Positions 1 through 15,193 of a stretch of DNA of 21,246 bases are shown here, one piece after another. Source of the DNA: a virus (taxonomy: Duplodnaviria > Heunggongvirae > Uroviricota > Caudoviricetes); IMG/VR virus record IMGVR_UViG_2534681772_000016, positions 1 through 21,246 of that record, one strand, 5' to 3'. Numbering within the stretch: the first letter of the stretch is position 1; each line of letters starts with the position of its first letter. Both the position numbers and the translations under genes were made by a program. A model generated the notes under the pieces. That model had not been told where the DNA came from. It saw only the letters and a program-made list of their open reading frames with translations, and did no database searches.

Positions 1-261
1 GAAGCCGGATTACTGGCATCAACAGGAAGTACAGGCGACTCGTATGACAACGCGATGGCGGAGAGCATCAATGGTCTTTACAAAGCGGAGGTAATACACC
101 GTAAGAGCTGGAAAAACCGTGCAGAAGTGGAACTGGCCACACTCACGTGGGTGGACTGGTATAACAATCGACGATTGCTGGAAAGGCTGGGCCATACTCC
201 TCCGGCAGAAGCAGAAAAAGCTTATTATGCTTCCATCGGAAACGATGATCTGGCAGCCTGA
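1..261 (+). CDS. IS3-family transposase OrfB (DDE integrase domain), C-terminal fragment
   Basis: The in-frame translation ...[80 protein letters not shown] matches the C-terminus of the OrfB encoded at 17406-18296. It is truncated by the window edge. Confidence 0.9.
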   Translation, partial: EAGLLASTGSTGDSYDNAMAESINGLYKAEVIHRKSWKNRAEVELATLTWVDWYNNRRLLERLGHTPPAEAEKAYYASIGNDDLAA

Positions 262-303
262 GTTCACAGATAAAACACTCTCCAGGAAACCCGGGGCGGT
301 TCA
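1..303 (+). mobile_element. IS629-like (IS3 family) insertion sequence, 3'-terminal 303 bp only; the element continues beyond the window start
   Basis: Positions 1-303 align with the last 303 bp of the complete IS copy at 18036-18338, with about 7 mismatches. The terminal inverted repeat ends in ...cccggggcggttca at 303, after which the sequence diverges from the other copy. Confidence 0.9.
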
Positions 304-659
304 GCTTGATTAGGATGTCTTTCCATCAGTCCGCCACCACAAAGAATCTTTTTTTGCCATAAGGCAGGAGGTTCATCTTTCAGTGGCTGCCAGTGTTATT
401 TCCCCACTTACTGGCTTGGGTTGTTTCGCTGTACTGCCGTAACTGGTTACCCAGAATAAATTCCGGTTTCATTATCAAGCCCACCAGTAGATAGGCTTTG
501 TAATGAACTGGCTCTTATCTCAACGCAGCCCCTTACCGCGCGCCAGATGCTCAATATCAAGCATCAGCAATGAGATGTTTAATCTGGATTCACTCCAGAA
601 GTGATCACCACCCTGTCTACAGAGCCAGATGTGAAGGATGATGAGTAAAATTATCGCTA

Positions 660-1117
660 TCATCGAAGGCATTGCGTCCTGATGTATTCCTGCAGGTAGT
701 TAACCTGCGCGGTTATCCTGTCGATTCCACTTCGGAGACGGTAATAATTGAGTTCAGCATCTGCTGTAAGTCTTGGGCTTTCTCCATCGCCCATGCCGCT
801 GGCTCCGGTCGTTGACTTTGCACAGGTGGCGGCGACCTGCAGGCGCTTACGCCCAGCAGAAACATCAGCACGGAGACTTTCGATAGTCGCGTTAGCATCA
901 GCAAGCTCCTTTGTGTATCTTGCATCGAGCGCAGCAACATCACGCTGACGCATCTGCATGTCAGTAATTGCCACGTCGCCAGCTTCAGTTCTCTGGCATT
1001 TTTGTCGCGCTGGGCTTTGTAGGTAATGGCGTTATCACGGTAATGATTAACAGCCCATGACAGGCCGACGATGATGCAGATAACCAGAGCGGAGATAATC
1101 GCGGTTACTCTGCTCAT
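660..1117 (-). pseudogene. Rz: Rz i-spanin, frameshifted relative to lambda Rz
   Basis: The N-terminal frame reads [47 protein letters not shown] and then leaves the Rz frame. The C-terminal part, ..[26 protein letters not shown].., is in another frame (ORF 660-974). A 1-bp loss around 975-990 is inferred from the remembered lambda Rz sequence. Confidence 0.7.
713..898 (-). CDS. Rz1: Rz1 o-spanin lipoprotein, embedded in the +1 frame of Rz
   Basis: The 61-aa product [42 protein letters not shown]... has a signal peptide, a lipobox-like Cys and a proline-rich segment. The embedded position is the same as lambda Rz1. Confidence 0.6.
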
Positions 1118-1590
1118 ACCTCAATCTCTCTGACCGTTCCGCCTGCTTCTTTGAATTTTGCAATCAGGTTGTCAGCCTTATGCTCGAACTGACCATAACC
1201 AGCGCCCGGCAGTGAAGCCCAGATATTGCTGCAACGGTCGATAGCCTGACGGATATCACCGCGATCAATCATCGGTAAAGCGCCACGCTCTTTAATCTGC
1301 TGCAATGCCACAGTGTCCTGGCTTTTCGGAGAGAAGTCTTTCAGGCCAAGCTGATTACGATAGGCATCCCACCAACGGGAAAGAAGCTGGTAACGTCCGG
1401 CTGCTGTTGATTTGAGTTTGGGGTTTAGCGTGACAAGTTTGCGAGGGTGATCTGAGTAATCAGTGAATAGCTCTCCGCCTACAATGACGTCATAACCATG
1501 ATTTCTGGTTTTCTGCCGTCCGTTATCAGTTCCCTCTGACCACGCCAGCATATCGAGGAACGCCTTACGTTGATTATTGATTTCCACCAT
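1114..1590 (-). CDS. R: Endolysin R (lambda-type lytic transglycosylase)
   Basis: The 158-aa product [39 protein letters not shown]... is near-identical to lambda R as recalled. The start overlaps the S stop and the stop overlaps the Rz start. Confidence 0.95.
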
Positions 1591-1897
1591 CTTCTACTCC
1601 GGCTTTTTTAGCAGCGAAGCGTTTGATAAGCGAACCAATCGAGTCAGTGCCGATGTAGCCGATGAACACGCTCGTTATATAAGCGAGATTGCTACTTAGT
1701 CCGGCGAAGTCGAGAATGTCACGAATGAACCAGGCGATAATGGCGCACATCGTTGCGTCGATTACTGTTTTTGTAAACGCACCGCCATTATATCTGCCGC
1801 GAAGGTACGCCATTGCAAACGCAAGGATTGCCCCGATGCCTTGTTCCTTTGCCGCGAGAATGGCGGCTAACAGGTCATGTTTTTCTGGCATCTTCAT
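1574..1897 (-). CDS. S: Holin S (class I, lambda S107/S105 dual-start motif MKMPEK)
   Basis: The 107-aa product [34 protein letters not shown]... is near-identical to lambda S. It contains hydrophobic transmembrane segments and sits upstream of R. Confidence 0.95.
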
Positions 1898-2302
1898 GTC
1901 TTACCCCCAATAAGGGGATTTGCTCTATTTAATTAGGAATAAGGTCGATTACTGATAGAACAAATCCAGGCTACTGTGTTTAGTAATCAGATTTGTTCGT
2001 GACCGATATGCACGGGCAAAACGGCATGAGGTTGTTAGCGCAGCCTCTTGCCACCCGCTTTCACGAAGGTCATGTGTAGAAGGCCGCAGCATAACTATCA
2101 CTGATGAATTCAGGATAGCCAGTGGCTACGGCTCAGTTTGGGTTGTGCTGTTTCTGGGCGGCGATGACGCCTGTACGCATTTGGTGATCCGGTTCTGCTT
2201 CCGGTATTCGCTTAATTCAGCACAACGGAAAGAGCACTGGCTAACCAGGCGCGCCGACTCTTCACGATTATCGACTCAATGCTCTTACCTGTTGTGCAAA
2301 CA

Positions 2303-2340
2303 AAAAAGCCACCGTTGCAACTTAAGAGTCACTAACGGCA
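2303..2340 (-). terminator. Putative tR'-like intrinsic terminator of the short late leader transcript
   Basis: On the minus strand, the hairpin ugccguu...aacggugg is followed by cuuuuuuguuug. It lies immediately upstream of the lambda-like late leader that runs to S. Confidence 0.4.
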
Positions 2341-2345
2341 GCTTA

Positions 2346-2382
2346 CCCTCTAATTATGGCTAAATGGCTAATTGCATGTCAA
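2346..2382 (-). promoter_or_regulatory. Putative late promoter pR' (-35 TTGACA, 18-bp spacer, -10 CATAAT) overlapping the last codons of Q; likely qut region
   Basis: On the minus strand TTGACA (2377-2382) lies within the final Q codons and CATAAT (2353-2358) lies just after the Q stop. This is the expected position for a Q-dependent late promoter. Confidence 0.45.
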
Positions 2383-2878
2383 GGTTTTTAACAGCAACAT
2401 GCTTAACTTTCTCAACACGTTTACGCATTTTGAAAGCATTTTGCATTGGCTGGTACAAAACAAATAACGACGCTTTCAGGATGTCGTCAATTTCGTTTCT
2501 ACAGGTTGCCAGTGAAGGTTTTCTCCATCCCTCGCCACCACGTCCACACATCTTGCGTGGCTTTGCAGTCGCGTGATAGTAGGATGCAATTGCTCGCTTA
2601 GATGAACCATGAGCGTAGTAGCTGAGGAGGATGCCAAAGGCTTTCTTGTCAATGCACATGACGGAATCGACGACCTGAGAAATCAACATTCCATCATCAT
2701 CATTGCACATTGGCCTTGTCATAACTCTTCCCGGCTCTACGCTCTCCATGAACTTCGCTATTACGCTGCTCATGCGCTTTTCCAGACGACCTGAATAAAC
2801 CCATGCGCCCCACAGTTCAAGCCAGCCATTCAGCCACTCATGCTGCTCTTTGGTGAGGTTTAGTTCTCTTATTCCCAT
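2360..2878 (-). CDS. Q: Late-gene antiterminator Q (non-lambda Q family, similar to phage 21/82 and QuuD types)
   Basis: The 172-aa product contains ..[37 protein letters not shown].. motifs recalled from Q-family antiterminators. It sits between the nin region and the late promoter and lysis genes. Confidence 0.75.
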
Positions 2879-3539
2879 GCGCCTTCTCCCTGTACCTGAA
2901 TCAATGTGAGGTTTCCGCAGAACACTGCGCCGGTATCGATATACATCTGGTTGGCAAACTTGAGTGGTTTCACTGCTGGCGTATGACCAAAGATGAACAT
3001 GTCCGCGCCTTTGATTTCTTTCACGATCCCGTCTTGTGAGTTGCTGATTCGTTCGCGATTCCAGATTACCTGCTGATGATCAACTGGCTTTCCGAACTCG
3101 TATTCGTCACAAGGATAATCGGCGTGGCAGATGACATATTTTTTCCTTTACTCACCAGTTCGATTATTAACGGAAGTTCATCTGCTTTATGGGCAAGAGC
3201 TTTAGCCAGAATTTCTTTGTCGTAATCGAGATTAAAGAACCAGCCACCGCCATTAAGCAGCCAGTGATTAACGTTTCCACGCTCTGATAAGCCATCAATC
3301 ATCATTTGCTCATGGTTTCCACGTACAGCTCTGAACCAGGGGAATGTGATTAATTCCATACATTCGACGTTCTCTGTACCGCGATCAACCAAATCGCCAA
3401 CCGAGATAAGCAGGTCTTTTTTGGTGTCGAATCCTATCGCCTCCAGTTTTTTCATCAGGTTCGTGTAGCATCCGTGCAGATCGCCAACTACCCAAATATT
3501 TCGGTATTTGCTGCCATCAATTCTTTCGTAATAGCGCAT
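2869..3539 (-). pseudogene. ninI: NinI-like Ser/Thr protein phosphatase (calcineurin-like metallophosphatase), frameshifted
   Basis: The N-terminal frame [28 protein letters not shown]...[19 protein letters not shown] matches lambda NinI. The C-terminal part [11 protein letters not shown]...[33 protein letters not shown] is in another frame. The break is at a T6 run (plus strand 3137-3142). Confidence 0.8.
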
Positions 3540-3723
3540 CTCTTTCACTCCATCCGCGATGAACCATAAGAACGTCGTTGACGATGGCGTGCATTTTCCC
3601 GTCTTTATCATCAACGTATTTTCTGACCGTGCCGCGACTACATTTCAGTCTGCGTGCTACTTCTGTCTGGTTTCCGTATGCTTCAACGAGCATGTCTGGA
3701 ATGGTTTTTACTGAGAACGTCAT
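3517..3723 (-). CDS. ninH: NinH
   Basis: The 68-aa product [39 protein letters not shown]... matches lambda NinH as recalled. Confidence 0.9.
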
Positions 3724-4331
3724 GCGGCCTCACTTCTGCTATTTCGCAGGTCTTTGAGTTTCTGCTGATACTCCGCCTTGATCGCCTTGCACTCTTCGAC
3801 AGTCCAGCGATGGCGGTTATGGTTTGATTCGATTTCGTCTACTGCTTCCTGCCCGATGCGATTAATCAGTTCGACGCGATACGGAACGAGATTTCCGCTT
3901 TTGTGCTGGTTGCACACCACGCATTGCTTGTGAATATTGCGTTCATCAAATCGGAGTTGAGGTGCCGCAGCAGTTGTCCGGTAATGTCCGGCATCCCACT
4001 GAGCAGACGTGAGCGTTCCGCACGAGATACATGGTAAGTCGCGGTCTCTTTCTCTGATGAAGGCGTTTACGGCTTGTTGGGCTTGTTTAATCCAGTAACT
4101 GCGGGGCTTTAAGGCGAGTTTTCGAATCTTAAGTTTATCTTTCTGTTTCTGCTCCTCTCGTCGTCGTTTCTTCTCTGCTGCCTTTTCCGCTTTTTCGCGT
4201 TCTTTGCTTCGTCGTTCGAGTGCTATCTTGGTTCCACACTCTGGAGAGCACCACCACTGATTGGCGAATGCAGGGTGAAACCATTCCCGACATTCATCGT
4301 TTTTACATCGTCTTCGCGCTGGTTTAGCCAT
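3720..4331 (-). CDS. ninG: NinG (Rap-family recombination-associated endonuclease)
   Basis: The 203-aa product [35 protein letters not shown]... has the Cys-rich pattern and length of lambda NinG. Confidence 0.9.
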
Positions 4332-4494
4332 CGTCTTCTTCCTCGTGCATCGAGCTATTCGGATCGCTCATCAGTTCTGCGCAGCAGTGCTCACACACGT
4401 GAACTTCCAGCACATGCAGCTTCTGACCGCAGTTAGCGCACGTTAAAGCTCGCTCGACGCTTTCTTGTTCGTAACTTCGATTTGGGTCAATCAC
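4324..4494 (-). CDS. ninF: NinF (GTG start)
   Basis: The 56-aa translation (V)[55 protein letters not shown] matches lambda NinF. It is shorter than the 60-aa cutoff of the ORF track. Confidence 0.8.
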
Positions 4495-4673
4495 CTTGTT
4501 TTCCTCGCACGTTCTCTAAGCCACCGGATATCCCACAGGTGAGCCGTGTAGTTGAAGGTTTTTACGTCAGATTCTTTTGGGATTGGCTTGCGTTTATTTC
4601 TGGAGCGTTTCGTTGGAAGGTATTTGCAGTTTTCACAGATGATGTCGGTGATACTTCGTCGCTGTCGTCTCAT
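4491..4673 (-). CDS. ninE: NinE
   Basis: The internal Met start gives [52 protein letters not shown]..., which matches lambda NinE (60 aa). Confidence 0.85.
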
Positions 4674-5200
4674 GCCGCCCTCCTGACGCGCTGCCCGATT
4701 GCCATCAATGCCGCTTTGGATACAGTAGTAAACATCCGTCGAGGACTGATGAACGGTCGCCAAATCAGCAGCATGGAGCCTTTGCTGTTTCCCTTCTTCT
4801 CCAGCCCTGTCGATGGTTCGATAAAATTAATCCGTCCATCAGTGATAATGCGAACTTCGTCGACACTCTCCAGAGCCTTGCTGAACCATCCGACTGACAT
4901 ATCCTCTGGCACAAGCATCACTACCGTCTGTCGCTGTTGTATACACTGCTCAGCGGCTTTTTCCACCCACGGCCTGATATTGCTGTACGGTGGGTTATTC
5001 CAGATTGCACCGTGGCTTACCCACTCAGAATTGAGCGCGTCGTCGGCCTCAGTTAGCCAGTGAGCACACAGAGCATTTTTGTCGCTCGCTGCCGAATCCA
5101 GCCAGAATCCAAACTCAATATCCAGTGCATCAAAAAGCCAAAGCGGCGTTTGCCAGCAGTCTCTAACTTCTTTTGGTGTTTCTGATTTATGCTTAATCAT
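4670..5200 (-). CDS. Phage Dam-like DNA N6-adenine methyltransferase
   Basis: The product contains [17 protein letters not shown] and NPPYS (the D/N-PP-Y catalytic motif). Its ATG overlaps the ninB stop (ATGA). It occupies the lambda ninC/ninD position. Confidence 0.7.
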
Positions 5201-5649
5201 GCAGCCTTTCCTTTTCGTTGTGACCATTCATACTCTCGCCGGGAGTCATCACTCCACCGCACGTTGCGCTCTGAGCCGAACCAGAACATGATTTCGATAA
5301 GCTCAGTCATGCTGGCCTTTCGCATTTTGCTGGTACGCACACCAAGCATGACAACGCCACCATCGATACCAGGAACACTTCGTTGCTCCAGTTTTTTGGT
5401 CTTAAGCCACAGGGCAGTGAACAGGTCTTTCCAGTCTTCCGGTGCCAGCCGTTGACCATGCCATAGCACCTGACGCGAAACATCGTTCAGCATCGGCCAC
5501 ATACGGTCATTCTGAGCTTTGCTGCGTTTGGGTTCTCTAACGTGGACTTCATGAGGTGACTTGTCGTCGATCGGAAGTGAGAGTATTGCGTCTATGGCGT
5601 TGTTTCTGATTGCTTCGTTGCGAAGCATGTATATTTGCTTCATTGTCAC
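5197..5649 (-). CDS. ninB: NinB (Orf-family recombination mediator)
   Basis: The 150-aa product has ..DVSRQVLWHGQRL..EDWKDLFTA..FGSERNVRWSDD.., matching the lambda NinB pattern. Confidence 0.8.
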   Translation of the reverse strand: MTMKQIYMLRNEAIRNNAIDAILSLPIDDKSPHEVHVREPKRSKAQNDRMWPMLNDVSRQVLWHGQRLAPEDWKDLFTALWLKTKKLEQRSVPGIDGGVVMLGVRTSKMRKASMTELIEIMFWFGSERNVRWSDDSRREYEWSQRKGKAA

Positions 5650-5675
5650 CTCAACTCACAAAACGCCACGCCATT

Positions 5676-5831
5676 TTATAGGCTCCATCCATCCCATTTT
5701 CTCTCACCAAAAATATGCCTGTGCCATTCTTCCCGCTGCCGTCTCCATAGTTCCATCATGTCTGGCTGGTTCTTTTCTCGCATTTTTCGAATCTGCTCAA
5801 GGATGAACTCTATTTGCTGCTGATTTGTCAT
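5676..5831 (-). CDS. Hypothetical small protein (51 aa)
   Basis: The ORF MTNQQQIEFILEQIRKMREKNQPDMMELWRRQREEWHRHIFGERKWDGWSL is preceded by GAAGGAG at suitable spacing. No family was recognised. Confidence 0.35.
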   Translation of the reverse strand: MTNQQQIEFILEQIRKMREKNQPDMMELWRRQREEWHRHIFGERKWDGWSL

Positions 5832-5841
5832 GCTCACTCCT

Positions 5842-6057
5842 TCACTTTAAATTCAGGTTCCGGATTATTCTGTTGCGCTGAAACTCATTGTTGAGTTTGA
5901 ACAACCGCCGAAGAACACGGTCACGCGGATAGCGTCGTGCGGCAGGTGAATGCTCATACAACTCATCAATCGGCAAACTGGACGATGAACGATACTGATA
6001 CCAACGCACCAACTCTTCACGAAAATTAGCCCTGACAAGTTCAGCTATCGTACTCAT
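5842..6057 (-). CDS. Hypothetical protein (71 aa), in the position of lambda ren
   Basis: The ORF has an upstream GGAGG RBS. It lies between the tR2-like terminator and ninB. No family was recognised. Confidence 0.45.
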   Translation of the reverse strand: MSTIAELVRANFREELVRWYQYRSSSSLPIDELYEHSPAARRYPRDRVLRRLFKLNNEFQRNRIIRNLNLK

Positions 6058-6082
6058 TTCTTAAAGCCTCCAATTCCCTCTC

Positions 6083-6118
6083 CCCCAAATAAAAAGGCCT
6101 GCGATTACCAGCAGGCCT
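6083..6118 (-). terminator. Intrinsic terminator downstream of the replication genes (tR2-like position)
   Basis: On the minus strand, the perfect 8-bp stem aggccugc/gcaggccu with an 8-nt loop is followed by uuuuuauuug. It lies 30 bp after the helicase stop. Confidence 0.6.
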
Positions 6119-6147
6119 GTTACAAGCTCAGTGATGTAGATGGTCAT

Positions 6148-6915
6148 TTAATACTCCGTCACGTTTTCCTGTCGCCACGCCTCGTCATATTCCGACTTCG
6201 GCATATTGGCGATGTAGCTATATGGCGATCCTGATTCAAGTTGCAGGAACTGGTGCGATTGCTCGTCAAGGAACAACGGGACACCACCTTCCCAACCTTC
6301 GCCGTTACGTTGTTTTTCAAGCATCAAAACAGATGCCGGAGATGCCAGTAGCTGTTCGTCCTTCTCTGACATCTTTTCACCACTCTGAACTCTCTGTAAC
6401 GCTCTCTCGCGAGCCTTGTTACGCCAGATGATGAAAAGATTGTCTGTCAGGTCTGTTATCGCTCCAGAGCCTTTTACGTCCATTTTCCCGGTTGGTTTTT
6501 CTTCGCTGTCTCCTTTTCGCGAGTGAGTAACGAGAATGACGTGGGAGTTTGTTTTGTTTTTGAAGTCGCAAATCGAGTCAACAAACGCCTTCTGCCCGTT
6601 ATAGTCATCGTCGCCTATGCCACATTTCATCAGGCTGTCGATGATGAATAACTGGATCCCGTATCGGCGGCGAGCGTAGTCGAATATTTCGATCAGCCTG
6701 TCGGCTTTCGCCGTTCCGGTCAGACCAAACACCCAAAGTCTCTCGTCATAAAATTTAAATGCAGAGTCAATTTCCAGCACTGGCGGCATCTTGCAGCACG
6801 TCGCCTGACGGGTAAGTCGCTTAAGGAGAATGCCTGGCTTCAGCTCAAGTGACGCGATGCAGGTCTTCACACCCTGACGCATTGCCTCAAGTGCCATATG
6901 CCCGACAACCTCGGT
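6148..6915 (-). CDS. Replicative primase-helicase, C-extein: RecA-like helicase core of the T7 gp4/DnaB type
   Basis: After the intein terminal HN the product reads TEVVGHMALEAMRQ... It has a Walker B-like IQLFIIDSLMK and the motifs HVILVTHSRK and GSGAITDLTDNLFIIWR. Confidence 0.7.
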   Translation of the reverse strand, partial: TEVVGHMALEAMRQGVKTCIASLELKPGILLKRLTRQATCCKMPPVLEIDSAFKFYDERLWVFGLTGTAKADRLIEIFDYARRRYGIQLFIIDSLMKCGIGDDDYNGQKAFVDSICDFKNKTNSHVILVTHSRKGDSEEKPTGKMDVKGSGAITDLTDNLFIIWRNKARERALQRVQSGEKMSEKDEQLLASPASVLMLEKQRNGEGWEGGVPLFLDEQSHQFLQLESGSPYSYIANMPKSEYDEAWRQENVTEY

Positions 6916-7937
6916 GTTATGCGTTGCCACATATCCTCTGGTTACATACAGGTGGCGAGGGTGATCGACCATGATACACAAGCATTCTGCATTGCCGATT
7001 TTTTCAACATTCCTGACGAATACCCCACACCCCTCGAATCGATGCGCAGTTAATCTGCCATTGAGTCGTGGTGAACGGATGGCCTCCCTGATTTCCCTTG
7101 TCAGTCGTATCCTTGCCTCATATGAATCCATCCCATGCCGCTTATCGCCCTTGTATGTGTATGTCACGCCAGTTTTAACTCGCGTCCGGCATGAACCGCC
7201 GAGTGAGTTAACCAGTTGAACAACCCCATTACGCAGTTCTTCACTTGCTGAGGAAAAACAAGCGTTCCATCCTTCTCGACATAACCATCCGTTTCAAGCA
7301 GACCACACAGCATTCCTATACGCGTTGATTTGTTTGCGGAAAAAAACACACGAGGGATGAATTTGTTTTTTGCTGTGCACCCCATTAGTCCATAAACTCG
7401 CAGGGTCTCCATGAGTGGATTTACCTGACCACGCGCCGTTGATATCAGCCAGTCCTTACCATCTCCAGAGAAGTTGTAATCAGGCAGTTCAGCCTTCATA
7501 CGCTCGATCATGTATGGCTCGACGTTTGAAAACTTCACGCTCCCATTGCTAAGACTACCATCCCCGAGAAGGGAGCCGATAACCCATGCTAATGGCTCTG
7601 AGTGGTCGCCAAAGTCACCAGTTATTTCGGGTATCCTGACGCCATTTTTGTGCCTCTTCGTTTCACTCAACCGTTTCAGCTCGAAGGTGTCTATCACGCG
7701 GCGCTTCTCGCCTTTCGTGAATCCACGACTAGTGACCTCCCATAGGTGATCGCCTGCGCAATCAACATAACGACCATCTTCAAATGTGACTCGGTAAACA
7801 TCTCTAACACCCTGCGGGAATATCCCGGTGACAGTTGACGGATTGCCGTCTACTGATGCCACCTGATCGCCAATTTTTACATCCCCGTGAGTAGTCCATT
7901 CACCATTAGCGAGCAGAATTGGTTCATCAAGTGGACA
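6916..7937 (-). other. Intein (Hint domain with embedded LAGLIDADG homing-endonuclease motifs) inserted in the helicase P-loop; reading frame broken at an A5/T5 run (plus strand 7254-7258)
   Basis: N-terminal block CPLDEPILLANGEW..IGDQVASVDG..VYRVTFEDGRYVDCAGDHLWEV. Two LAGLIDADG motifs: LAWVIGSLLGDGSL and IGMLCGLLETDGYV. C-terminal block, in the other frame, CLCIMVDHPRHLYVTRGYVATHN followed by T. The extein-only product restores GHGK(A)T. Confidence 0.7.
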
Positions 7938-9053
7938 GGCTTTTCCGTGACCGTTCACACCATTGACCAGCGTCAACTCTGCCTCACGGAACTGGAATTT
8001 ATCTGCCAGAGATTCCCACGGTGGATTAAACAGATACTGCTGCTTGCCGTAGAAAGCGTTGATAGTGTCCTGGTAAAACTCTCGCGCACTGTAGAGTTCT
8101 TCAGGATCGAAGTAGGATGCCGTGCCGATGTACTGCCAGATTTCATCCTCGGTAACACCGTTCATCAGGCATTCGTTGATGTCTTTGTACGGCAGAGTAA
8201 CAAGACGGCAACGATGTTCACCGAGTCGGCTTGCGATTTCCCTTGCGGCTTCACGACCAACATCATCAACGTCCATCGAGATGAATATTTCCTCAAACCT
8301 GTCGAGGTTGTGATACTCAAACTCAATCCACTGTTGCTTAGCGCCTTTCCCGCCACCAAACGGCACGGATAACGCCGAGATGCCGTATTGCGCATAGCTC
8401 ATACAATCAATTTCGCCTTCGCAAAGTACAACCGCCCTCACGCCAGCGTCCAGAGCCTGCCATCCGAACAGACAAGGTTCGCAATCACCTTCTGCCATAA
8501 TGACTTTCTTCCCGTCCGGGCGCTCAGTGCTGATTCGCTTGACCTGCAACAACTCACCATCGCGTTTGTACGGAAGCACCAGTGCATCAAGTTCTCGTTC
8601 TCCATTCCACACCTTGCCGCTGACAACCTCGTAGCGCTTTACGACTTCTGGCGATATGCCACGCGATTGCAGGTACTCAAGATGGGATTCTGTTCTGGTA
8701 ACGTAGCGGGCGATTTTCTTGCGGTCAGGTCTGGAGAATTTCTTCTCACGTTTGGCATCGAAATGGTGATCGTCATCCTTGATTCCGAGAAAGGCTTTCG
8801 CTTCCTGCATAGCCTGATGCAGGTTAATTCCACGACATGCCATCCACAAATCAAGCATGTCACCGCCGTCTCCCTCAGCGAAATCAGCCCATTTTTTCTT
8901 GCCGCTAAGGTTGACCTTAAGGCTGTTTCCCTTGTCACCGTTGACGTTACCGGCAACCCACTCATGCCCCTCTTTCTTGCCGTTTGGCAACAGGTGCGGA
9001 GCCACCCTGTCAACCTGCGCCCAAAGCAGGTCGCTAAGTTCACTTGGCGTCAT
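7938..9053 (-). CDS. Replicative primase-helicase, N-extein: toprim primase domain plus the start of the helicase up to the Walker A GVNGHGK
   Basis: The product contains the toprim signatures VVLCEGEIDCMSYAQYG and FISMDVDDVGREAA and ends in ..LTLVNGVNGHGKA before the intein. A GAGGGA RBS precedes the ATG at 9053. Confidence 0.75.
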
Positions 9054-9160
9054 GATTCCCTCAGATTGAGATTTTTAAACCAGAAATCGACAAACGAAAT
9101 ACTTAACCAGCCGTGGTTATAACCAGCGACCAGTAGCGATTTGATTTTTGATTTCATGGT

Positions 9161-10021
9161 TCACCTGTCGAAAAACACGTAGCCAGTTTTCGATACGGTG
9201 ATTGCGGATGATGGTTTGGATTGTGGTTGAATAGTTTCTGGCTTCTCGTCGTTCCAGCGTTGACCGTTCAGGTAGCTCGATGGTAACAACCTGTCGAATC
9301 CGAACTGCTTACCATTCCTGCATGCGATGTCTTCTGCCAGCATCGTGGCAAACTCGCTTGCCGTACCCCTGGTAGTTTTACGCCATTCCCTGAACTGTGT
9401 TCTGAATGCCGAAGCCGCGTTTTTCTTCCCGGCTTTCCGCATGCCTGCACACCAGAATATTTCCTCGAATGCCTTGTCGGTTTCTTCGTGACGGTCAGAT
9501 GATTTTTCACACTCCGTCCGAACACTTTCGGACATAGTGTTTTTATTATTTCTTTTTTCTTTTGTAATAGTTTCTTTTGTGTGTCCCTGTTTTGGTGACA
9601 GCGCTGTCACCGTTTTGGTGACACTTTTTGTCACCAATGCAGTGACATTATCACCAGAGTAGTGACACCCTTCGATTTGCCATTCTTCGATGTTCTTGTT
9701 AGGCCCGATTTGCTGGCCTTCGCGAAGGATAACCTTCATCGCGATAAGCTCATTCTTGGCCTTGTTTACCTTCTGTCTTGGCAGCCTGGTAATTTGAGCT
9801 AACTGACTATCAGAAATGCGATCCATCTTTTTACCGTAGCCGTATGTTTTACGGCATATGGCGTGGGCAACCTTGCTCTGATTTTTCGTTAAATCTGCGC
9901 CGATAAGCTCTTCATACAGGGCATTTGCAAGACGGGTATAACCATCTTCAACTTCTGCCACACGACGCTCCACAGGCCGTTGTGAAGGCCTTAAATGTGT
10001 TACGGTTGCAAGATTACTCAT
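9161..10021 (-). CDS. Replication initiator, lambda O-like N-terminal iteron-binding domain with a divergent C-terminus
   Basis: The N-terminus ..[70 protein letters not shown] is similar to the lambda O N-domain as recalled. The iteron origin lies inside the gene, as in lambda O. Confidence 0.75.
9541..9668. repeat. Phage replication origin: about 4 iterons (GGTGACA/TGTCACC palindromes) plus an adjacent AT-rich region, inside the O-like gene
   Basis: The iterons are ggtgacagcgctgtcacc (9594-9611), ggtgacactttttgtcacc (9617-9635), gtgacattatcacc (9642-9655) and gtgacacc (about 9662-9669). A T-rich tract lies at 9541-9585. The order matches lambda ori relative to O. Confidence 0.7.
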
Positions 10022-10160
10022 GACCTTTCTCCTTCTGCATCAGCTTCACTTTTTCCAACTCAGCCCGGAATCGACCAGGCTGCTTGAAGCTGGACAGGAA
10101 GCGATCACGTAGTATGTGTTTGTGAATTTTGTCCTGGTAAGGACTGAGTTGTTTTGTCAT
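10014..10160 (-). CDS. Hypothetical small protein (48 aa) between cII and the O-like gene
   Basis: The [51 protein letters not shown] has an AGGAG RBS. Its stop overlaps the O start. Lambda has no gene at this position. Confidence 0.35.
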
Positions 10161-10170
10161 AATGACTCCT

Positions 10171-10247
10171 GTGGATTGATCCAGTAATGACCTCAGAATT
10201 CCATCTGGATTTGTTCAGAACGCTCGGTTGCAGCCGGGCGTTTTTTA
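10171..10247 (+). ncRNA. oop: oop-like antisense RNA overlapping the 3' end of cII
   Basis: The sequence gtggattgatccagtaatgacctcagaattccatctggatttgttcagaacgctcggttgcagccgggcgttttttatt closely matches lambda oop as recalled. It ends in a hairpin (cgctcgg/ccgggcg) followed by T6. Confidence 0.6.
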
Positions 10248-10486
10248 TTGGTGAGAATCGAAGCAACTTGTCGTGCCAATCGAGCCATGTCGTCGTCGAC
10301 GACACCCCATTCAAGAACAGCAAGCAGCATTGAGAACTTTGGAATCCAGTCCCTCTTCCACCTGCTGATCTGCGACTTATCAACTCCCACAGCTTCCGCT
10401 GTCTTCTCAGTTCCAAGCATTGCGATTTTGTTAAGCAACGCACTCTCGATTCGTAGAGCCTCGTTGCGTTTGTTTGCACGAACCAT
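10193..10486 (-). CDS. cII: Transcriptional activator CII
   Basis: From the internal Met, the 97-aa product [74 protein letters not shown]...EQIQMEF is near-identical to lambda CII as recalled. Confidence 0.9.
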
Positions 10487-10545
10487 ATGTAAGTATTTCC
10501 TTAACAAATAAGAAGTTATGCGCATCAACTTATGCGCGTTGTATT

Positions 10546-10588
10546 CCCGCATTTCGGCGGGAATGAGGACCATGACTGTTAAAGAGCA
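10546..10588 (-). promoter_or_regulatory. nutR (boxA TGCTCTTTAACA-like and a boxB hairpin) between cro and cII
   Basis: On the minus strand, gctctttaaca is followed by the hairpin cccgc-cgaaat-gcggg. The boxB is identical to the one in nutL at 11701-11716. Confidence 0.65.
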
Positions 10589-10594
10589 ATTTGC

Positions 10595-10780
10595 TTATGC
10601 CGCTTTGCGGTAAGCGCTTTCTTGATACTTCAGGGCGCCAGCTGTAACGACTTCCAGTCGATAGGCGTCTTTCTCTGGGATGACTTCCTTCCACTGAGAG
10701 ACTGCTGCGTCGCTAATGCCTAACGCTTTAGCTACAGCACGCTGGGTTCCGAAGTGGTCGATAACATCTTTCTTGTACAT
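10595..10780 (-). CDS. cro: Cro repressor, P22 type
   Basis: The 61-aa product MYKKDVIDHFGTQRAVAKALGISDAAVSQWKEVIPEKDAYRLEVVTAGALKYQESAYRKAA matches P22 Cro as recalled. Confidence 0.9.
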   Translation of the reverse strand: MYKKDVIDHFGTQRAVAKALGISDAAVSQWKEVIPEKDAYRLEVVTAGALKYQESAYRKAA

Positions 10781-10794
10781 AGACTCGCTCCGAA

Positions 10795-10860
10795 ATTAAA
10801 GAACACTTAAATTATCCACTAAAGGAATCTTAAGTCAAGTTTATTTAAGATGTCTTAACT
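10795..10860. promoter_or_regulatory. Right operator OR1-OR2-OR3 with the divergent promoters PR (towards cro) and PRM (towards c2)
   Basis: Three 18-bp sites fit the P22 operator pattern ANTNAAGNNNNCTTNANT: attaaagaacacttaaat (10795-10812), actaaaggaatcttaagt (10818-10835) and atttaagatgtcttaact (10843-10860). Confidence 0.75.
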
Positions 10861-11511
10861 ATGAAAACTCAATTGATGGGAGAGCGCATTCGCGCTCGGA
10901 GAAAAGAACTCAAGATCAGGCAGGCCGCACTTGGAAAGATGGTCGGCGTGTCTAATGTTGCCATATCTCAGTGGGAACGCTCTGAGACAGAGCCAAATGG
11001 AGAGAATCTTCTCGCCCTGGCTAATGCGTTGAAGTGTTCCCCTGACTATCTGATGAAAGGAGAGGAAAGTCTTTCAAACATTGCCTATCACAGTAGGCAT
11101 GATCCAAGAGGGTCATACCCTCTGATTAGCTGGGTGAGCGCAGGATGCTGGATGGAAGCTGTAGAACCATATCATAAGCGTGCAATAGATAACTGGTACG
11201 ATACAACCGTAGACTGTTCAGAAGATTCGTTTTGGTTGGACGTGAAGGGAGACTCAATGACGGCTCCGGCCGGTCTCAGTATCCCTGAAGGAATGATAAT
11301 ACTCGTCGATCCTGAAGTAGAGCCGCGTAACGGGAAACTGGTAGTTGCAAAGCTCGAAGGAGAAAACGAGGCAACTTTCAAGAAGTTAGTTATTGATGCA
11401 GGCAGGAAGTTTCTAAAACCACTTAACCCACAATATCCGATGATCGAGATCAACGGAAACTGCAAAATCATCGGCGTAGTTGTCGATGCAAAACTAGCAA
11501 ACCTTCCATAA
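10861..11511 (+). CDS. c2: Prophage repressor, P22 C2 type (HTH plus LexA-like S24 peptidase domain)
   Basis: The 216-aa product MKTQLMGERIRARRKELKIRQAALGKMVGVSNVAISQWERSETEPNGENL... ends in ..GDSMTAPAGLSIPEGMIILVDPE..KLANLP, the autocleavage-domain motifs. Confidence 0.9.
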   Translation: MKTQLMGERIRARRKELKIRQAALGKMVGVSNVAISQWERSETEPNGENLLALANALKCSPDYLMKGEESLSNIAYHSRHDPRGSYPLISWVSAGCWMEAVEPYHKRAIDNWYDTTVDCSEDSFWLDVKGDSMTAPAGLSIPEGMIILVDPEVEPRNGKLVVAKLEGENEATFKKLVIDAGRKFLKPLNPQYPMIEINGNCKIIGVVVDAKLANLP

Positions 11512-11533
11512 GGGGGCATTCGCCCCTTTTTTT
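11512..11533 (+). terminator. Intrinsic terminator after c2
   Basis: The hairpin ggggc-attc-gcccc is followed by T7, directly after the c2 stop codon. Confidence 0.7.
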
Positions 11534-11575
11534 ATTTCCTTTAAAAATCAAAGCCAAACTTAAGTTACGAAAGAA

Positions 11576-11630
11576 AATTTAAGTTTTCTTCAAAAATACT
11601 CTTGACCATTAATTAAAGAGATCTTAAATT
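11576..11630 (+). promoter_or_regulatory. Left operator and PL promoter region (OL sites, -35 TTGACC, weak -10)
   Basis: The site attaaagagatcttaaat (11612-11629) fits the P22 operator pattern. A second half-site pair lies at about 11576-11595. TTGACC at 11602-11607 has a TAAATT-like -10 element 17 bp downstream. Confidence 0.55.
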
Positions 11631-11676
11631 TAAGCCATCAGCAGGACGCTGGTAGCCAAACGGAACAGATTGGCAG

Positions 11677-11716
11677 GCTCTTTAACATTGATGGGATTGT
11701 CCCGCCGAAATGCGGG
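11677..11716 (+). promoter_or_regulatory. nutL (boxA gctctttaaca plus a boxB hairpin)
   Basis: The boxA-like sequence at 11677-11687 is followed by the hairpin cccgc-cgaaat-gcggg at 11701-11716, upstream of the N-like gene. Confidence 0.65.
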
Positions 11717-11824
11717 AACCAAAGAGTAGTTGGCTTTGGGGTGACGTGAAGTGCAGCTGCACGACGGCAACCGGAAGATAAGCACCCGGCGCGTCACCGC
11801 CAAAGTCAATCATCGGAGGTCAAC

Positions 11825-12097
11825 ATGACAGTAGTCATTACATATCTGGCTGACGATAACGCCAGAAATCGCCGCAGAGCACGCAGACAGGCTCAACGTG
11901 AACAGGCAATGCAAGAGCAGCGACTGGCGCGAAAAATTGCGCTAAAGCTCTCTGGTTGCGTCAGAGCAGACAAAGCAGCATCACTAGGAAGCCTTTGCTG
12001 CAAGAAGGCAGATGAATGCAGTGGAAGTATTTGCCTGCCAAACGTAGCCGTTTACGCGGCAGGCTACCGGAAATCAAAACAATTGACGGCGAGGTAA
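11825..12097 (+). CDS. N: N-like transcription antiterminator (arginine-rich motif)
   Basis: The N-terminal arginine-rich motif is DNARNRRRARRQAQREQA. The C-terminus LPNVAVYAAGYRKSKQLTAR resembles the P22 gene 24/N family as recalled. The gene lies downstream of nutL. Confidence 0.7.
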   Translation: MTVVITYLADDNARNRRRARRQAQREQAMQEQRLARKIALKLSGCVRADKAASLGSLCCKKADECSGSICLPNVAVYAAGYRKSKQLTAR

Positions 12098-12099
12098 TT

Positions 12100-12462
12100 A
12101 TGGGTCAGGAAGAAAAATATGAGCTTAAAAAGCTCATTGAAGAAGACGGCATAGAAGAAATTGCAGCATTAACAACAGCTATAAAGAATATTAGGTATGC
12201 GCTAAATGCGCTTATCTCCTCATGCGACAAAAATAGCAGGGAATTTTTGATACTTGGCGCAGCTCTAGGAATAGTTGATGCGGCAACGCTTCACCTAATT
12301 ACTCATGACGATATTCTTATTGAGCCGTATGAAACATTACTGCTTGTCAGGCAAAAAATGGCTGATGCCGCAGCAAATGGAGACCTTCAACTTTACATCG
12401 ACTTAAGGAAAGTATTAAGGCGAATGGTCAGAACTGAAGGAGATATCCCCCTGACAAAATAA
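12100..12462 (+). CDS. Hypothetical protein (120 aa), first early-left accessory gene after N
   Basis: The ORF MGQEEKYELKKLIEEDGIEEIAALTTAIKNIRYALNAL... has a GAGG RBS and starts directly after the N stop. No family was recognised. Confidence 0.5.
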   Translation: MGQEEKYELKKLIEEDGIEEIAALTTAIKNIRYALNALISSCDKNSREFLILGAALGIVDAATLHLITHDDILIEPYETLLLVRQKMADAAANGDLQLYIDLRKVLRRMVRTEGDIPLTK

Positions 12463-12562
12463 GGGGGTAAGAGGATTTTACTATTTTTCTCGCTGTAGGG
12501 GTACACGAGAACCACCGAGCCTGATGTGGTTAAAAGACAGGCATACTAATAAACACTGCACT

Positions 12563-12590
12563 GTGTATTCATTCCAACGAGTGAATACAC
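12563..12590 (+). other. Perfect 9-bp inverted repeat hairpin in a 236-bp intergenic spacer
   Basis: gtgtattca-ttccaacgag-tgaatacac. No T-run follows it, so it is not a typical intrinsic terminator. Confidence 0.4.
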
Positions 12591-12652
12591 GGAGCAATGT
12601 CGCTCGTAACTAAACAGGAGCCGACTTGTTCTGATTATTGGAAATCTTCTTT

Positions 12653-12680
12653 GCCCTCCAGTGTGAGGGCGATTTTTTAT
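12653..12680 (+). terminator. Intrinsic terminator (tL-type, presumably read through by N-modified polymerase)
   Basis: The hairpin gccctc-cagtgt-gagggc is followed by gattttttat, 19 bp upstream of the next ATG. Confidence 0.7.
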
Positions 12681-12698
12681 CTGTGAGGATATGAACAG

Positions 12699-13067
12699 AT
12701 GTCAAACATCAAAAAATACATCATTGATTACGACTGGAAAGCATCAATAGAAATTGAAATCGACCATGACGTAATGACAGAGGAAAAACTTCACCAGATT
12801 AATAATTTCTGGTCAGACTCTGAATACCGACTCAATAAACACGGCTCTGTATTAAATGCTGTATTAATCATGCTGGCGCAACATGCTCTGCTTATAGCAA
12901 TTTCAAGCGACTTAAATGCATATGGTGTTGTGTGTGAGTTCGACTGGAATGATGGAAATGGTCAGGAAGGATGGCCTCCAATGGATGGTAGCGAAGGAAT
13001 AAGAATTACCGATATCGATACATCAGGAATATTTGATTCAGATGATATGACTATCAAAGCCGCCTGA
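12699..13067 (+). CDS. Hypothetical strongly acidic protein (122 aa)
   Basis: The ORF MSNIKKYIIDYDWKASIEIEIDHDVMTEEKLHQINNFWSDSEY...DIDTSGIFDSDDMTIKAA has a large excess of Asp and Glu over Lys and Arg. No family was recognised. Confidence 0.55.
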   Translation: MSNIKKYIIDYDWKASIEIEIDHDVMTEEKLHQINNFWSDSEYRLNKHGSVLNAVLIMLAQHALLIAISSDLNAYGVVCEFDWNDGNGQEGWPPMDGSEGIRITDIDTSGIFDSDDMTIKAA

Positions 13068-13142
13068 GCGCGGCGTTACCGCATACCAATAACGCTTCAC
13101 TCGAGGCGTTTTCGTTATGCAATCAAATATAAGGAGTTACCC

Positions 13143-13277
13143 ATGATGCACTTTCAGCTCGCGGGTAGCGGCGTCATGTCCGCTTTCTACCCGCACGAAT
13201 CTGAATTATCACGCCGAGTTAAACAATTAATCAGAGCAGCAAAGAAACAACTGGAGGCGTTATGCGCAATGAAATAG
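13143..13277 (+). CDS. cIII: CIII-like protein (putative FtsH inhibitor), 44 aa
   Basis: The product MMHFQLAGSGVMSAFYPHESELSRRVKQLIRAAKKQLEALCAMK has a central amphipathic helix resembling the lambda CIII core PSESLLERITRKLRDGWKRLIDIL. An AAGGAG RBS precedes it. Confidence 0.5.
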   Translation: MMHFQLAGSGVMSAFYPHESELSRRVKQLIRAAKKQLEALCAMK

Positions 13278-13413
13278 CCATCAATCACCAGATGCTTCGT
13301 GCTGCACAGAACAAAGCAGTAATAGCCAGATTTATTGGTGATTCAAAAATGTGGCTTGAAGCAAATAAAGCGATGAAATCAGCTATCAACCTTCCGTGGT
13401 ATCGCAGGAAATG
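13261..13413 (+). CDS. Hypothetical small protein (50 aa)
   Basis: The ORF MRNEIAINHQMLRAAQNKAVIARFIGDSKMWLEANKAMKSAINLPWYRRK has a GGAGG RBS and overlaps the end of the cIII-like ORF. Confidence 0.35.
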
Positions 13414-13487
13414 AGTTTTACAGATAACTGGTCAGACGAAGAATTCATTCGTCAGATGAAAGAATTAATCGGTAACGAAGGAGATAT

Positions 13488-13661
13488 TCATGTCACTTGC
13501 AACCACAGTGAAGGAGAGCAAGTTACAGAGACGCATGTACACGCAGAAAGCTCTCTGGTATCGCCATAATGGTGACCGCGAAGGAATGCGGGTATGCCTT
13601 AATTTGTCCCGAGTCGAAGTATTAAATCAGCGTTATTTCCTTGGGCCGTGTCCATTCTGAG
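13488..13661 (+). CDS. Hypothetical small protein (57 aa), in the position of kil
   Basis: The ORF MSLATTVKESKLQRRMYTQKALWYRHNGDREGMRVCLNLSRVEVLNQRYFLGPCPF has an AAGGAG RBS. An alternative overlapping ORF at 13411-13569 cannot be excluded. Confidence 0.35.
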
Positions 13662-13668
13662 GTGAATT

Positions 13669-14376
13669 ATGGATTTGAACAAATTCGATGAGCCATTCAG
13701 CCCTGAAGATATCGAATGGCGAATACAGCAAAGCGGTAAAACACGCGATGGCAAAGTGTGGGCTATGGTGCTGGCTTATGTCACGAACCGGGCAATCATG
13801 AAACGCCTGGACGATGTTTGCGGCAAAGCAGGATGGCGCAATGAATACCGCGATATTCCCAACAACGGCGGAGTTGAATGCGGCATATCAATCAAGATTG
13901 ATTCCGAATGGGTAACCAAATGGGATGCTGCTGAAAACACGCAGGTAGAAGCCGTCAAAGGTGGTCGTTCCGGTGCAATGAAGCGTGCTGCCGTTCAATG
14001 GGGAATCGGTCGGTATCTGTATAACCTTGAGGAAGGTTTCGCACAAACATCTCTCGATAAAAAGCAGGGGTGGCACAGGGCAAAACTGAAGGATGGAACA
14101 GGATTTTACTGGCTTCCTCCATCGCTGCCGGGATGGGCAATCCCAGCATCAGATAACAAACCATCACCAGAAAATACCAACCAGAAATCTCCATCGGTTG
14201 ACTGCGAACAAATCCTGAAAGACTTCAGCGATTATGCGTCAACAGAAACTGACAAGAAAAAACTCATCGAGCGTTATCAGCGTGACTGGCAATTAATGGC
14301 TGGCAACGAGGAGGCGCAGGCTAAATGCGTTCAGGTAATGAACATCAGAGTTAACGAACTAAAACAGGCGGCATAA
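13669..14376 (+). CDS. Single-strand annealing protein, Rad52/Sak-like family recombinase
   Basis: The motif GGRSGAMKRAAVQWGIGRYLYNL is typical of Rad52-family annealing proteins. The gene sits immediately upstream of ssb in the recombination module. Confidence 0.65.
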   Translation: MDLNKFDEPFSPEDIEWRIQQSGKTRDGKVWAMVLAYVTNRAIMKRLDDVCGKAGWRNEYRDIPNNGGVECGISIKIDSEWVTKWDAAENTQVEAVKGGRSGAMKRAAVQWGIGRYLYNLEEGFAQTSLDKKQGWHRAKLKDGTGFYWLPPSLPGWAIPASDNKPSPENTNQKSPSVDCEQILKDFSDYASTETDKKKLIERYQRDWQLMAGNEEAQAKCVQVMNIRVNELKQAA

Positions 14377-14883
14377 ATGGCAAGCAGAGGCGTAAATAAG
14401 GTGATTATCCTTGGTCGGGTAGGACAAGACCCGGAAGTTCGATACTCACCATCAGGAACAGCGTTCGCTAACCTGACAATAGCCACGTCAGAACAATGGC
14501 GAGATAAAAATACTGGCGAGCAAAAGGAATTGACTGAATGGCATCGTGTTGCTGTATCCGGGAAACTGGCTGAGGTCGTTGGGCGGTATGTGAAAAAAGG
14601 TGATCAGATTTATTTCGAGGGAATGCTGAGAACCAGAAAGTGGAAAGACCAGTCAGGGCAAGACCGTTACACAACCGAGGTTCATGTCGGAATTAATGGC
14701 GTGATGCAAATGCTTGGCGGCATTGGCGACAGCAAACAACAAGCAGCCAGCAGGCAATCACAGAAGCCACAGCAGCAATCATCACCAGCACAACACAACG
14801 AACCTCCGATGGATTTTGACGACGATATACCCTTTGCACCAGTAACTCTCCCCTTCCCTCGTCACGCTATTCACGCAATTTAA
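14377..14883 (+). CDS. ssb: Single-stranded DNA-binding protein with a 15-aa extension beyond the DDDIPF tip
   Basis: OB-fold N-terminus [44 protein letters not shown]...; Gln/Pro-rich linker; ..[11 protein letters not shown] followed by [15 protein letters not shown]. Confidence 0.9.
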
Positions 14884-14896
14884 TCAGGAGAAAAAC

Positions 14897-15193
14897 ATGC
14901 CAGCGCCTTTGTATGGTGCGGATGACGCGCGCCGCTGTTCCGGCAATTCCGTATCGGAGGTGCTGGATAAATTCAGAAAAAACTACGATCGGATAATGTC
15001 GCTACCGCAGGAAACGAAAGAGGAAAAGGAATTTCGCCACTGTATATGGCTTGCAGAGAAAGAAGAGCGCGAGCGAATTTACCAGACATCAATCCGACCA
15101 TTCCGCAAAGCCACATATACCCACTTCTCTGAATATATCGACCCGCGCCTGCGTAATTACCGCTCACGCTATGGCGCTATCAGTAATGACTGA
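14897..15193 (+). CDS. Hypothetical protein (98 aa)
   Basis: The ORF MPAPLYGADDARRCSGNSVSEVLDKFRKNYDRIMSLPQETKEEKEF... has a GGAG RBS and lies in the accessory region after ssb. Confidence 0.5.
   Translation: MPAPLYGADDARRCSGNSVSEVLDKFRKNYDRIMSLPQETKEEKEFRHCIWLAEKEERERIYQTSIRPFRKATYTHFSEYIDPRLRNYRSRYGAISND

Follow-up and report, generated by a model that had tools for sequence, protein, structure and literature searches.

A one-base frame break in the class 3 intein of a lambdoid prophage primase/helicase gene, probably a homopolymer under-call in a draft assembly

The stretch of DNA analyzed here (the window; 21,246 nt, IMG/VR record IMGVR_UViG_2534681772_000016) carries the early right operon of a lambdoid prophage, with cI (10861..11511), cro, cII, O, primase/helicase, ninB, dam, ninE/F/G/H, ninI, Q, and the lysis genes. 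The primase/helicase gene lies downstream of an O-like initiator gene (Phage_rep_O, 9161..10021), in the place of lambda P, and it contains an intein (Table 1). No tRNA genes were found within the window. The spliced product (626 aa) matches the DNA primase/helicase family of PHROGs (phrog_239, PHROG 239; E = 1.9e-171) as well as structures of T7 gp4 (5IKN, 6N7I, and 1Q57; E of about 1e-23) and Twinkle. Pfam finds Toprim_2 at residues 209 to 296 of the N-terminal part and AAA_25 in the C-terminal part. A previous reading of the same DNA from sequence alone (the sequence-only reading) had called the gene a helicase; the helicase domain is indeed present, but the PHROG and structure matches indicate a bifunctional, T7 gp4-like primase/helicase. 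The 629-aa product in the databases is EHX60175.1, annotated as "putative replication protein P," and it was found on AIHG01000020.1 only, which belongs to Escherichia coli DEC13B (GCA_000250335.2), a 2012-era draft assembly.

Table 1. Coordinates of the intein-containing primase/helicase gene, the shortened homopolymer runs, and other features of the window
Feature	Position	Strand	Remarks
Primase/helicase gene (T7 gp4-like, Toprim plus RecA-type helicase) with intein	6148..9053	-	2906 nt; 2907 nt (968 aa) in intact relatives
N-extein: zinc-finger/Toprim primase and first half of Walker A (..GVNGHGK)	7941..9053	-	Boundary by alignment to intein-less alleles
Intein, Ala1-Cys-Pro-Leu to Thr-His-Asn, with LAGLIDADG homing endonuclease domain	6916..7940	-	1025 nt; 1026 nt / 342 aa when repaired
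C-extein: T(+1)EVVGH.., helicase domain (AAA_25/DnaB-like)	6151..6915	-	Stop codon at 6148-6150
Block B, DHLW: His65, Trp67 (W of WCT)	7740..7751	-	Aligned to His65/Trp67 of MchDnaB1, 6RIX
LAGLIDADG motif 1, LAWVIGSLLGDGS	7554..7592	-	Intein residues 117-129
LAGLIDADG motif 2, MLCGLLETDGYV	7278..7313	-	Intein residues 210-221
T5 homopolymer, frame break	7254..7258	-	T6 in all intact copies; intein residue ~228-229
Premature TGA in the shifted frame	7164..7166	-	Overlaps GTG at 7165-7167 that opens the downstream ORF (GTGA)
Block F, ECLCIMVD: Cys322 (C of WCT, class 3 nucleophile)	6964..6987	-	Aligned to Cys124 of 6RIX
Block G, A-T-H-N: Thr340 (T of WCT), His341, Asn342	6916..6927	-	Next codon is Thr+1
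Thr+1 codon difference, window versus TW10590	6913	-	ACC versus ACG
C-extein cluster of 4 synonymous differences from TW10590	6817, 6832, 6835, 6862	-	53-98 nt from C-terminal splice junction
N-extein differences from TW10590	7980, 8088	-	40 and 148 nt from N-terminal splice junction; synonymous
Second contraction	3139..3144	-	T6 versus T7 in TW10590; splits NinI Ser/Thr phosphatase gene
Third contraction	11527..11533	+	T7 versus T8 in TW10590; T-tract after GGGGGC..GCCCC hairpin terminator downstream of cI, non-coding
IS3-family insertion	1-304		Contig end, beside lysis genes
IS3-family insertion	17029-18338		Inside DUF551 gene

When aligned with two alleles that lack the intein, those of phage mEp043 and E. 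coli TW10590, the gene shows a 342-aa insertion inside the Walker A motif, between GVNGHGK and TEVVGH. The best PDB matches (phmmer) are class 3 inteins, namely MchDnaB1 (6RIX/6RIY) and MsmDnaB1 (6BS8), and His65, Trp67, Cys322, and Thr340 of the window's intein align with His65, Trp67, Cys124, and Thr143 of MchDnaB1, in which the WCT catalytic residues have been identified (PMC7664689). As defined by Tori et al. (2010), class 3 inteins have no N-terminal nucleophile, carry a WCT triplet and a Ser or Thr at +1, and mostly occupy helicase P-loops (PMC2807308). In the window, the boundary GHGK/ACPL makes residue 1 Ala instead of Cys, the WCT triplet is formed by Trp67, Cys322, and Thr340 in alignment with both 6RIX and 6BS8, and the boundary ATHN/TEVVG puts Thr at +1. 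Judged by its residues and its insertion site, the window's intein agrees with that definition of class 3 in all four respects. Once the frame is repaired, the two LAGLIDADG motifs lie between the splicing halves, and Pfam recognizes LAGLIDADG_3 (34.9 bits against a cut-off of 22.5) at residues 208 to 262, across the site of the break, along with a weak match to Hom_end. Before repair, neither LAGLIDADG_3 nor any other endonuclease domain is detected by Pfam in the ORF, the domain being cut at residue ~228.

The published class 3 mechanism suggests how an intact copy would work. The precursor would be translated as a single 968-aa chain, and the block F nucleophile Cys322, aided by His65, Trp67, and Thr340, would attack the Lys-Ala1 junction. 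By the same analogy, the N-extein would then be transferred to Thr+1, and cyclization of Asn342 would release the active 626-aa primase/helicase. The endonuclease of the freed intein could drive the copying of the intein into empty alleles.

As deposited, the gene does not encode such a chain. Its minus strand reads GGAACGCTTG-TTTTT-CCTCAGCAAG, with the T5 run (A5 on the plus strand) only 4 to 5 codons past the second LAGLIDADG motif. An ORF of 629 aa (7164..9053) holds the N-extein, intein blocks A and B, and both LAGLIDADG motifs and ends 29 codons past the run, while intein blocks F and G and the helicase C-extein lie in another frame, in an ORF of 339 aa (6148..7167). We aligned 6148..9053 with three intact coding sequences from E. 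coli FDAARGOS_944, O157:H7 WS4202, and Xuzhou21 (2907 nt and 968 aa each, with an identity to the window of about 98%), and the sole indel over 2.9 kb is one T absent from the T5 run. Adding one T yields GTLVFSSASEELRNGVVQLVNSLGG, the same peptide as in the homologs. The frame break in the deposited sequence is thereby confirmed as real and not a chance ORF pattern. These results uphold the sequence-only reading, which had located a break at the A5/T5 run, assigned the N-part with the LAGLIDADG motifs to the frame of the longer ORF and blocks F and G with the C-extein to that of the shorter one, and proposed that one extra T would give a continuous peptide. It had also considered the gene non-functional as written, and this too agrees with the arrangement found: a break at residue ~228 cuts off blocks A and B and the two LAGLIDADG motifs from the remainder of the endonuclease, the block F nucleophile, block G, and the helicase. 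On the sequence as it stands, neither a splicing-competent precursor nor a helicase could be made.

Is the shortened run shared by relatives? A run of six T's was found in every one of the 47 complete E. coli genomes with a match to the 52-mer around it (49 places), in 14 of 15 IMG/VR contigs, in both metagenome contigs, and in both GTDB representative genomes, the last three counts having been made using a pattern with an optional base in the run (N{0,1}). Overall, about 65 other assemblies carry T6, and direct inspection of the phage copies in phiKp_30 and Min27 also gave T6. An intact 968-aa ORF is present in 17 of the 19 other full-length copies that we collected. The comparison with related prophage copies for which the sequence-only reading had called thus returned T6 and a single 968-aa ORF in every intact relative. 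Across our searches of complete E. coli genomes, IMG/VR, metagenomes, and GTDB, T5 occurred in no finished genome, metagenome, or later assembly.

Homopolymer contractions were seen in two other copies only, both from 2011- to 2012-era draft accessions. Shigella flexneri K-1770 (EIQ18092.1; IMG/VR contig L019) has T5 in place of T6 at the same run, the intein allele being another one. In a neighboring gene, its A4 is shortened to A3 as compared with the 99.7%-identical E. coli chromosome assembly VL7S7, and its copy of the primase/helicase gene is truncated by an IS as well. In E. coli LT-68 (EFZ56568.1; L020), T7 has become T6 at a run 88 nt upstream. The single-base indels of the LT-68 and Min27 copies differ from the T5 of the window. 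When DEC13B, K-1770, and LT-68 are each compared with their closest relatives (finished genomes, plus IMG/VR contig L021 for the window's intein), all six indels are -1 homopolymer contractions.

Two close relatives of the window are especially informative, one with the intein and one without it. Contig L021 has T6 and an intact ORF, and its intein DNA is the same as that of the window at 1025 of 1025 aligned bases, the sole difference being T5 versus T6; its exteins differ from those of the window by 19 and 13 bases. A 99.9%-identical version of this prophage that lacks the intein occupies the corresponding position, adjoining cscB, in the finished E. coli TW10590 genome. Over the ~19.6 kb common to the window and TW10590, only two indels occur, and on the window's side each is a -1 contraction of one of the longest T runs. 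The first splits ninI, which encodes a protein identical to that of TW10590 after one T is added, and the other lies in the terminator downstream of cI. Of the four runs of at least 7 nt in the shared region, two are contracted relative to TW10590, while substitutions outside the tract that flanks the intein number about two (at 2403 and, at an IS junction, 14433). Altogether, the known indels of the window versus its closest relatives are three, and all are 1-nt contractions of A/T runs. The gene has none of the substitutions expected of a decaying pseudogene, with 0 mismatches in 1025 nt versus L021 and extein differences from TW10590 that are all synonymous.

These comparisons lead us to favor an artefact. 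We consider it probable (about 0.72) that T5 is a homopolymer under-call in the 2012 draft assembly and is not in the DNA of the bacterium. The same kind of under-call would account for the shortened runs in ninI (T7) and in the cI terminator (T8), and the primase/helicase gene would be intact and ordinary. Several observations argue for this: the intein is identical to the T6 copy of L021 at all other bases, each of the three indels in the window is a -1 contraction of an A/T run, substitutions are almost absent in comparison with the 99.9%-identical TW10590 prophage, T6 is the norm in ~65 assemblies, and the other contracted copies are from drafts of the same era and accession series. The recognition of LAGLIDADG_3 across the site only after repair points in the same direction. 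Mismatch-repair-proficient E. coli accumulates roughly ten substitutions per indel in mutation-accumulation studies. Here, indels are about as numerous as substitutions. All of them are -1 and fall in the longest A/T runs, whether or not the DNA codes for protein, and this is the signature of homopolymer under-calling. We believe that the DEC13B, K-1770, and LT-68 drafts all came from one sequencing center and were produced by pyrosequencing. The contractions in the window resemble under-calls of the pyrosequencing era in being single-base, confined to A/T runs with the longest preferred, spread over coding and non-coding DNA, and missing from finished genomes that share the sequence. They differ in that a 6-mer is rather short for an error in the consensus, and for DEC13B pyrosequencing is the presumed platform. 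The sequence-only reading had left a choice between a dead gene and a sequencing error; of these two, the T6 census and the lack of substitutions in the intein favor the error and weaken the case for a dead gene.

The same evidence bears on a genuine mutation, in which replication slippage deleted one T from T6 in the DEC13B prophage and truncated the precursor inside its homing endonuclease domain. The truncated chain would then lack block F Cys322, block G, and the helicase domain. Splicing and helicase activity would be lost, and the prophage, unable to replicate from its own origin, would be decaying or cryptic. The deposited sequence does read T5, and real replication slippage would share the signature described above, being -1, length-dependent, and found in A/T runs; this weakens the case for an artefact, as does the shortness of a 6-nt run for a miscall at the consensus level. 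The T5 of K-1770, which occurs in a gene that is also IS-truncated and hence certainly dead, may just as well be a true mutation that recurs at a hotspot. Some real decay of the DEC13B prophage is implied by its two IS3-family copies, one inside a DUF551 gene and the other where the lysis and packaging regions meet, and ninI is broken too; TW10590 has its own IS3-family copy elsewhere. In Shigella lineages, this intein occurs in IS-truncated copies, and InBase lists partial "ShP-Sfv ... -n Primase" inteins (PMC2807308). Against a genuine deletion, the intein has no substitutions in 1025 nt versus an intact copy, so that a real frameshift would have to be very recent. Moreover, the indels relative to TW10590 are as frequent as the substitutions and consist of homopolymer contractions throughout, including one in a terminator that is non-coding, and T5 is confined to draft accessions of 2011 to 2012, with no counterpart in finished genomes, metagenomes, or later assemblies. 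In all, we regard a genuine deletion as unlikely, at something like one chance in four. The cryptic prophage proposed in the sequence-only reading fits the IS insertions but not the absence of substitution decay, and that proposal has held up weakly.

It is tempting to go further and to see in the A/T runs of the endonuclease domain (T6 at 7254-7258 and T7 at 7340-7346) slippage hotspots whose contractions are real, recurrent, and independent in DEC13B, K-1770, and LT-68. They might then act as an on/off switch on prophage replication or, by way of the ORFs that overlap at GTGA, be a first step toward a split class 3 intein; we think this highly improbable. Highly improbable, too, is a real break that is tolerated through low-level -1 slippage (of tRNA-Phe on GTT-TTT-C), transcriptional slippage, or split-intein trans-splicing of the two ORFs. 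A -1 shift on the T run would restore the wild-type ..VFSSAS.. exactly, and the stop and start codons do overlap (GTGA, 7164-7167). There is also precedent for trans-splicing, which is possible for inteins broken in the endonuclease domain, and class 3 inteins are known in split form, both natural and artificial (PMC7891396, PMC10559147). Nevertheless, there is no X XXY YYZ heptamer, the zero-frame codons being CTT GTT TTT CCT, and the T run is far shorter than those known to give efficient transcriptional slippage. The two-frame arrangement is not conserved either, given that ~65 other assemblies are in frame and the only other breaks are the T5 of K-1770 and the different single-base indels of LT-68 and Min27. 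For trans-splicing, the downstream fragment would have to begin inside the endonuclease domain, and in the local sequence neither the GTG nor the following ATGs that could start the downstream ORF are preceded by a recognizable Shine-Dalgarno sequence. Programmed -1 frameshifting in particular was rejected, with no slippery heptamer, a single ORF in 17 of the 19 other full-length copies, and T6 in 47 of 47 complete genomes; the sequence-only reading had thought it unlikely for want of a heptamer, and relatives prove simply to be in frame with T6.

Whatever the status of the T5 run, the intein belongs to a family that is already known. Like the window's intein, the class 3 P-loop inteins (the prototype in DnaB of mycobacteriophage Bethlehem, MchDnaB1, and MsmDnaB1) have a non-nucleophilic Ala1, the WCT residues, and Thr+1, and class 3 helicase inteins share with it the ATPase P-loop of a phage-origin replicative helicase as the insertion site (PMC2807308). 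The host protein is different, however, being a T7 gp4-like primase/helicase in the window and DnaB for MchDnaB1 and MsmDnaB1. The class 3 inteins of solved structure are also mini-inteins, in contrast to the full-length intein of the window with its LAGLIDADG endonuclease, and the similarity between them is confined to the splicing blocks (E of about 1e-10 to 1e-7). Much closer are the InBase "ShP-Sfv ... Primase" inteins of S. flexneri prophages, which represent the same gene family and the same intein, and the copies from Min27, Stx2a phage, and S. flexneri are 97 to 98% identical to the window's gene. Presumably, InBase also has an entry for the primase intein of Enterobacteria phage Min27. 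Broken "n" copies that stop before block F have already been noted in S. flexneri 2a strains 301 and 2457T (PMC2807308). In S. flexneri SFBU1023, an IS3-family (IS600-like) insertion cuts the intein right after ...SSASEELRN and T6 is intact, and we therefore rejected the T5 lesion as the cause of the partial Shigella intein in that strain; truncation by an IS3-family element there contrasts with a T-run indel in the window. An IS insertion as in SFBU1023 probably explains the "n" partial inteins of InBase. Class 3 LAGLIDADG inteins in the P-loop of prophage primase/helicases are thus known and catalogued, broken copies included.

The comparison of alleles with and without the intein also bears on its mobility. 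Intein-less alleles (1881 nt) occur in phage mEp043, E. coli TW10590, and E2348/69, with exteins that are 98 to 99.8% identical, such that the intein is polymorphic for presence and absence at an otherwise conserved site. In L021, an identical intein is found in a different extein background. Within the gene, all differences between the window and TW10590 lie at most 150 nt from the insertion site, and all are third-position synonymous changes (Table 1). The variants in the C-extein are similar to those of E2348/69-type alleles, which lack the intein and match the C-extein tract of the window better than does the best intein-containing match, at 96.5% identity among complete E. coli genomes. 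The tract has no match in IMG/VR, and with an intein-containing match of 96.5% at best, the donor of the flanking tract appears to be unsampled. From their placement, the flanking synonymous differences look like a conversion tract left by a recent gain or loss of the intein. The two prophages, 99.9% identical with and without the intein, are a clean natural example of recent intein movement.

What would each outcome mean? If T5 is an artefact, a single intact primase/helicase with its intein has been annotated as two proteins, EHX60175.1 (629 aa) and a 274-aa call downstream of it, and the split NinI is likewise probably intact. This would be a lesson for annotation and would hold nothing new for biology. 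If the deletion is real, it would add one more decaying prophage gene. The recent intein movement seen in near-identical prophages could interest intein specialists.

In a finished genome, that of E. coli TW10590 (NZ_CP035850.1), this prophage occupies the identical site adjoining cscB, is 99.9% identical to window 304..21246 and has a primase/helicase without the intein. Between the window and TW10590, all differences in the primase/helicase gene are synonymous and fall no more than 150 nt to either side of the intein insertion site, a distribution that resembles the tract a conversion would leave when an intein is gained or lost. The window also holds other homopolymer contractions. A T7 to T6 contraction at window 3139..3144 breaks in two the gene for the NinI Ser/Thr phosphatase (minus strand, about 2869..3539), and adding one T there gives a protein identical to that of TW10590. 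The hairpin and T-tract past cI (see the table) have the appearance of an intrinsic terminator; the tract of this putative terminator is T7 in the window versus T8 in TW10590.

Downstream of the frame break in the primase/helicase gene, the truncated ORF's stop codon overlaps, as GTGA, with the GTG that opens the downstream ORF (window 7164..7167). Mechanically this is, as read from the sequence, a coupling arrangement, and no ribosome-binding site was found upstream of the GTG.

Broken copies of the gene occur in other genomes as well. The draft genome of S. flexneri K-1770 (L019, 4888..7234) shares the window's T6 to T5 contraction in a different intein allele; its gene is also IS-truncated at the 5' end, and another −1 contraction, from A4 to A3, is found at position 1858 of this locus, in a neighbouring LvrA-related gene. 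In draft E. coli LT-68 (L020), the neighbouring T run, 88 nt upstream of this T6 tract, has six T's in place of seven (CDS column 1708; its counterpart is window 7340..7346), leaving a truncated 578-aa product, EFZ56568.1. The record of phage Min27 (NC_010237.1) has one inserted base at each of two points in the helicase part, CDS alignment columns 2498 and 2511, so that 'replication protein P' and 'DNA primase' are annotated separately; these insertions are probably sequence errors too. A different kind of lesion is found in S. flexneri SFBU1023 (L038, 86..1609), where an IS3-family (IS600-like) element interrupts the intein ORF directly after ...SSASEELRN and a DnaC/DnaB-type replication module follows, as in two further copies, L037 and L031. 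This cut probably accounts for the Shigella primase inteins listed as 'partial' in InBase, and also for the 274-aa C-terminal fragment, which is present on 194 contigs.

Two IS3-family copies lie in the window, and the TW10590 prophage has a single copy elsewhere, between the Rad52-like gene and ssb. The sites differ, and insertion therefore took place independently in each sister prophage. No integrase was found on the excisionase/cscB side of the prophage, and the window contains no tRNA genes; we take this TorI-like excisionase end to fit the KplE1/SfV-type layout, in which the integrase lies at the opposite prophage end.

Mobile-element, regulatory and boundary features of the prophage
Feature	Window position	Setting
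IS3-family copy	1..304	contig end, adjoining lysis genes
Hairpin GGGGGC-ATTC-GCCCC + T-tract	11512..11533	directly past cI stop
IS3-family copy	17029..18338	within DUF551 gene
TorI-like excisionase gene	19144..19999	final prophage gene ahead of chromosomal cscB

The primase/helicase protein itself also varies. An E. coli variant of 942 aa (P0010) has an in-frame 26-aa deletion close to its N-terminal end, flanked by two ..GKK repeats (NGKK|EGHEW...LSGKK|KWADF). At the DNA level, the window intein (6916..7940) aligns with that of the intact copy on contig IMGVR_UViG_2737471865_000001 (L021, gene 8435..11341) with 0 mismatches in 1025 nt, the T-run excepted, and the exteins of the two differ by 19 and 13 nt despite the 100% identical intein. 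One intein allele in two host-gene backgrounds implies that the intein has recently moved horizontally.
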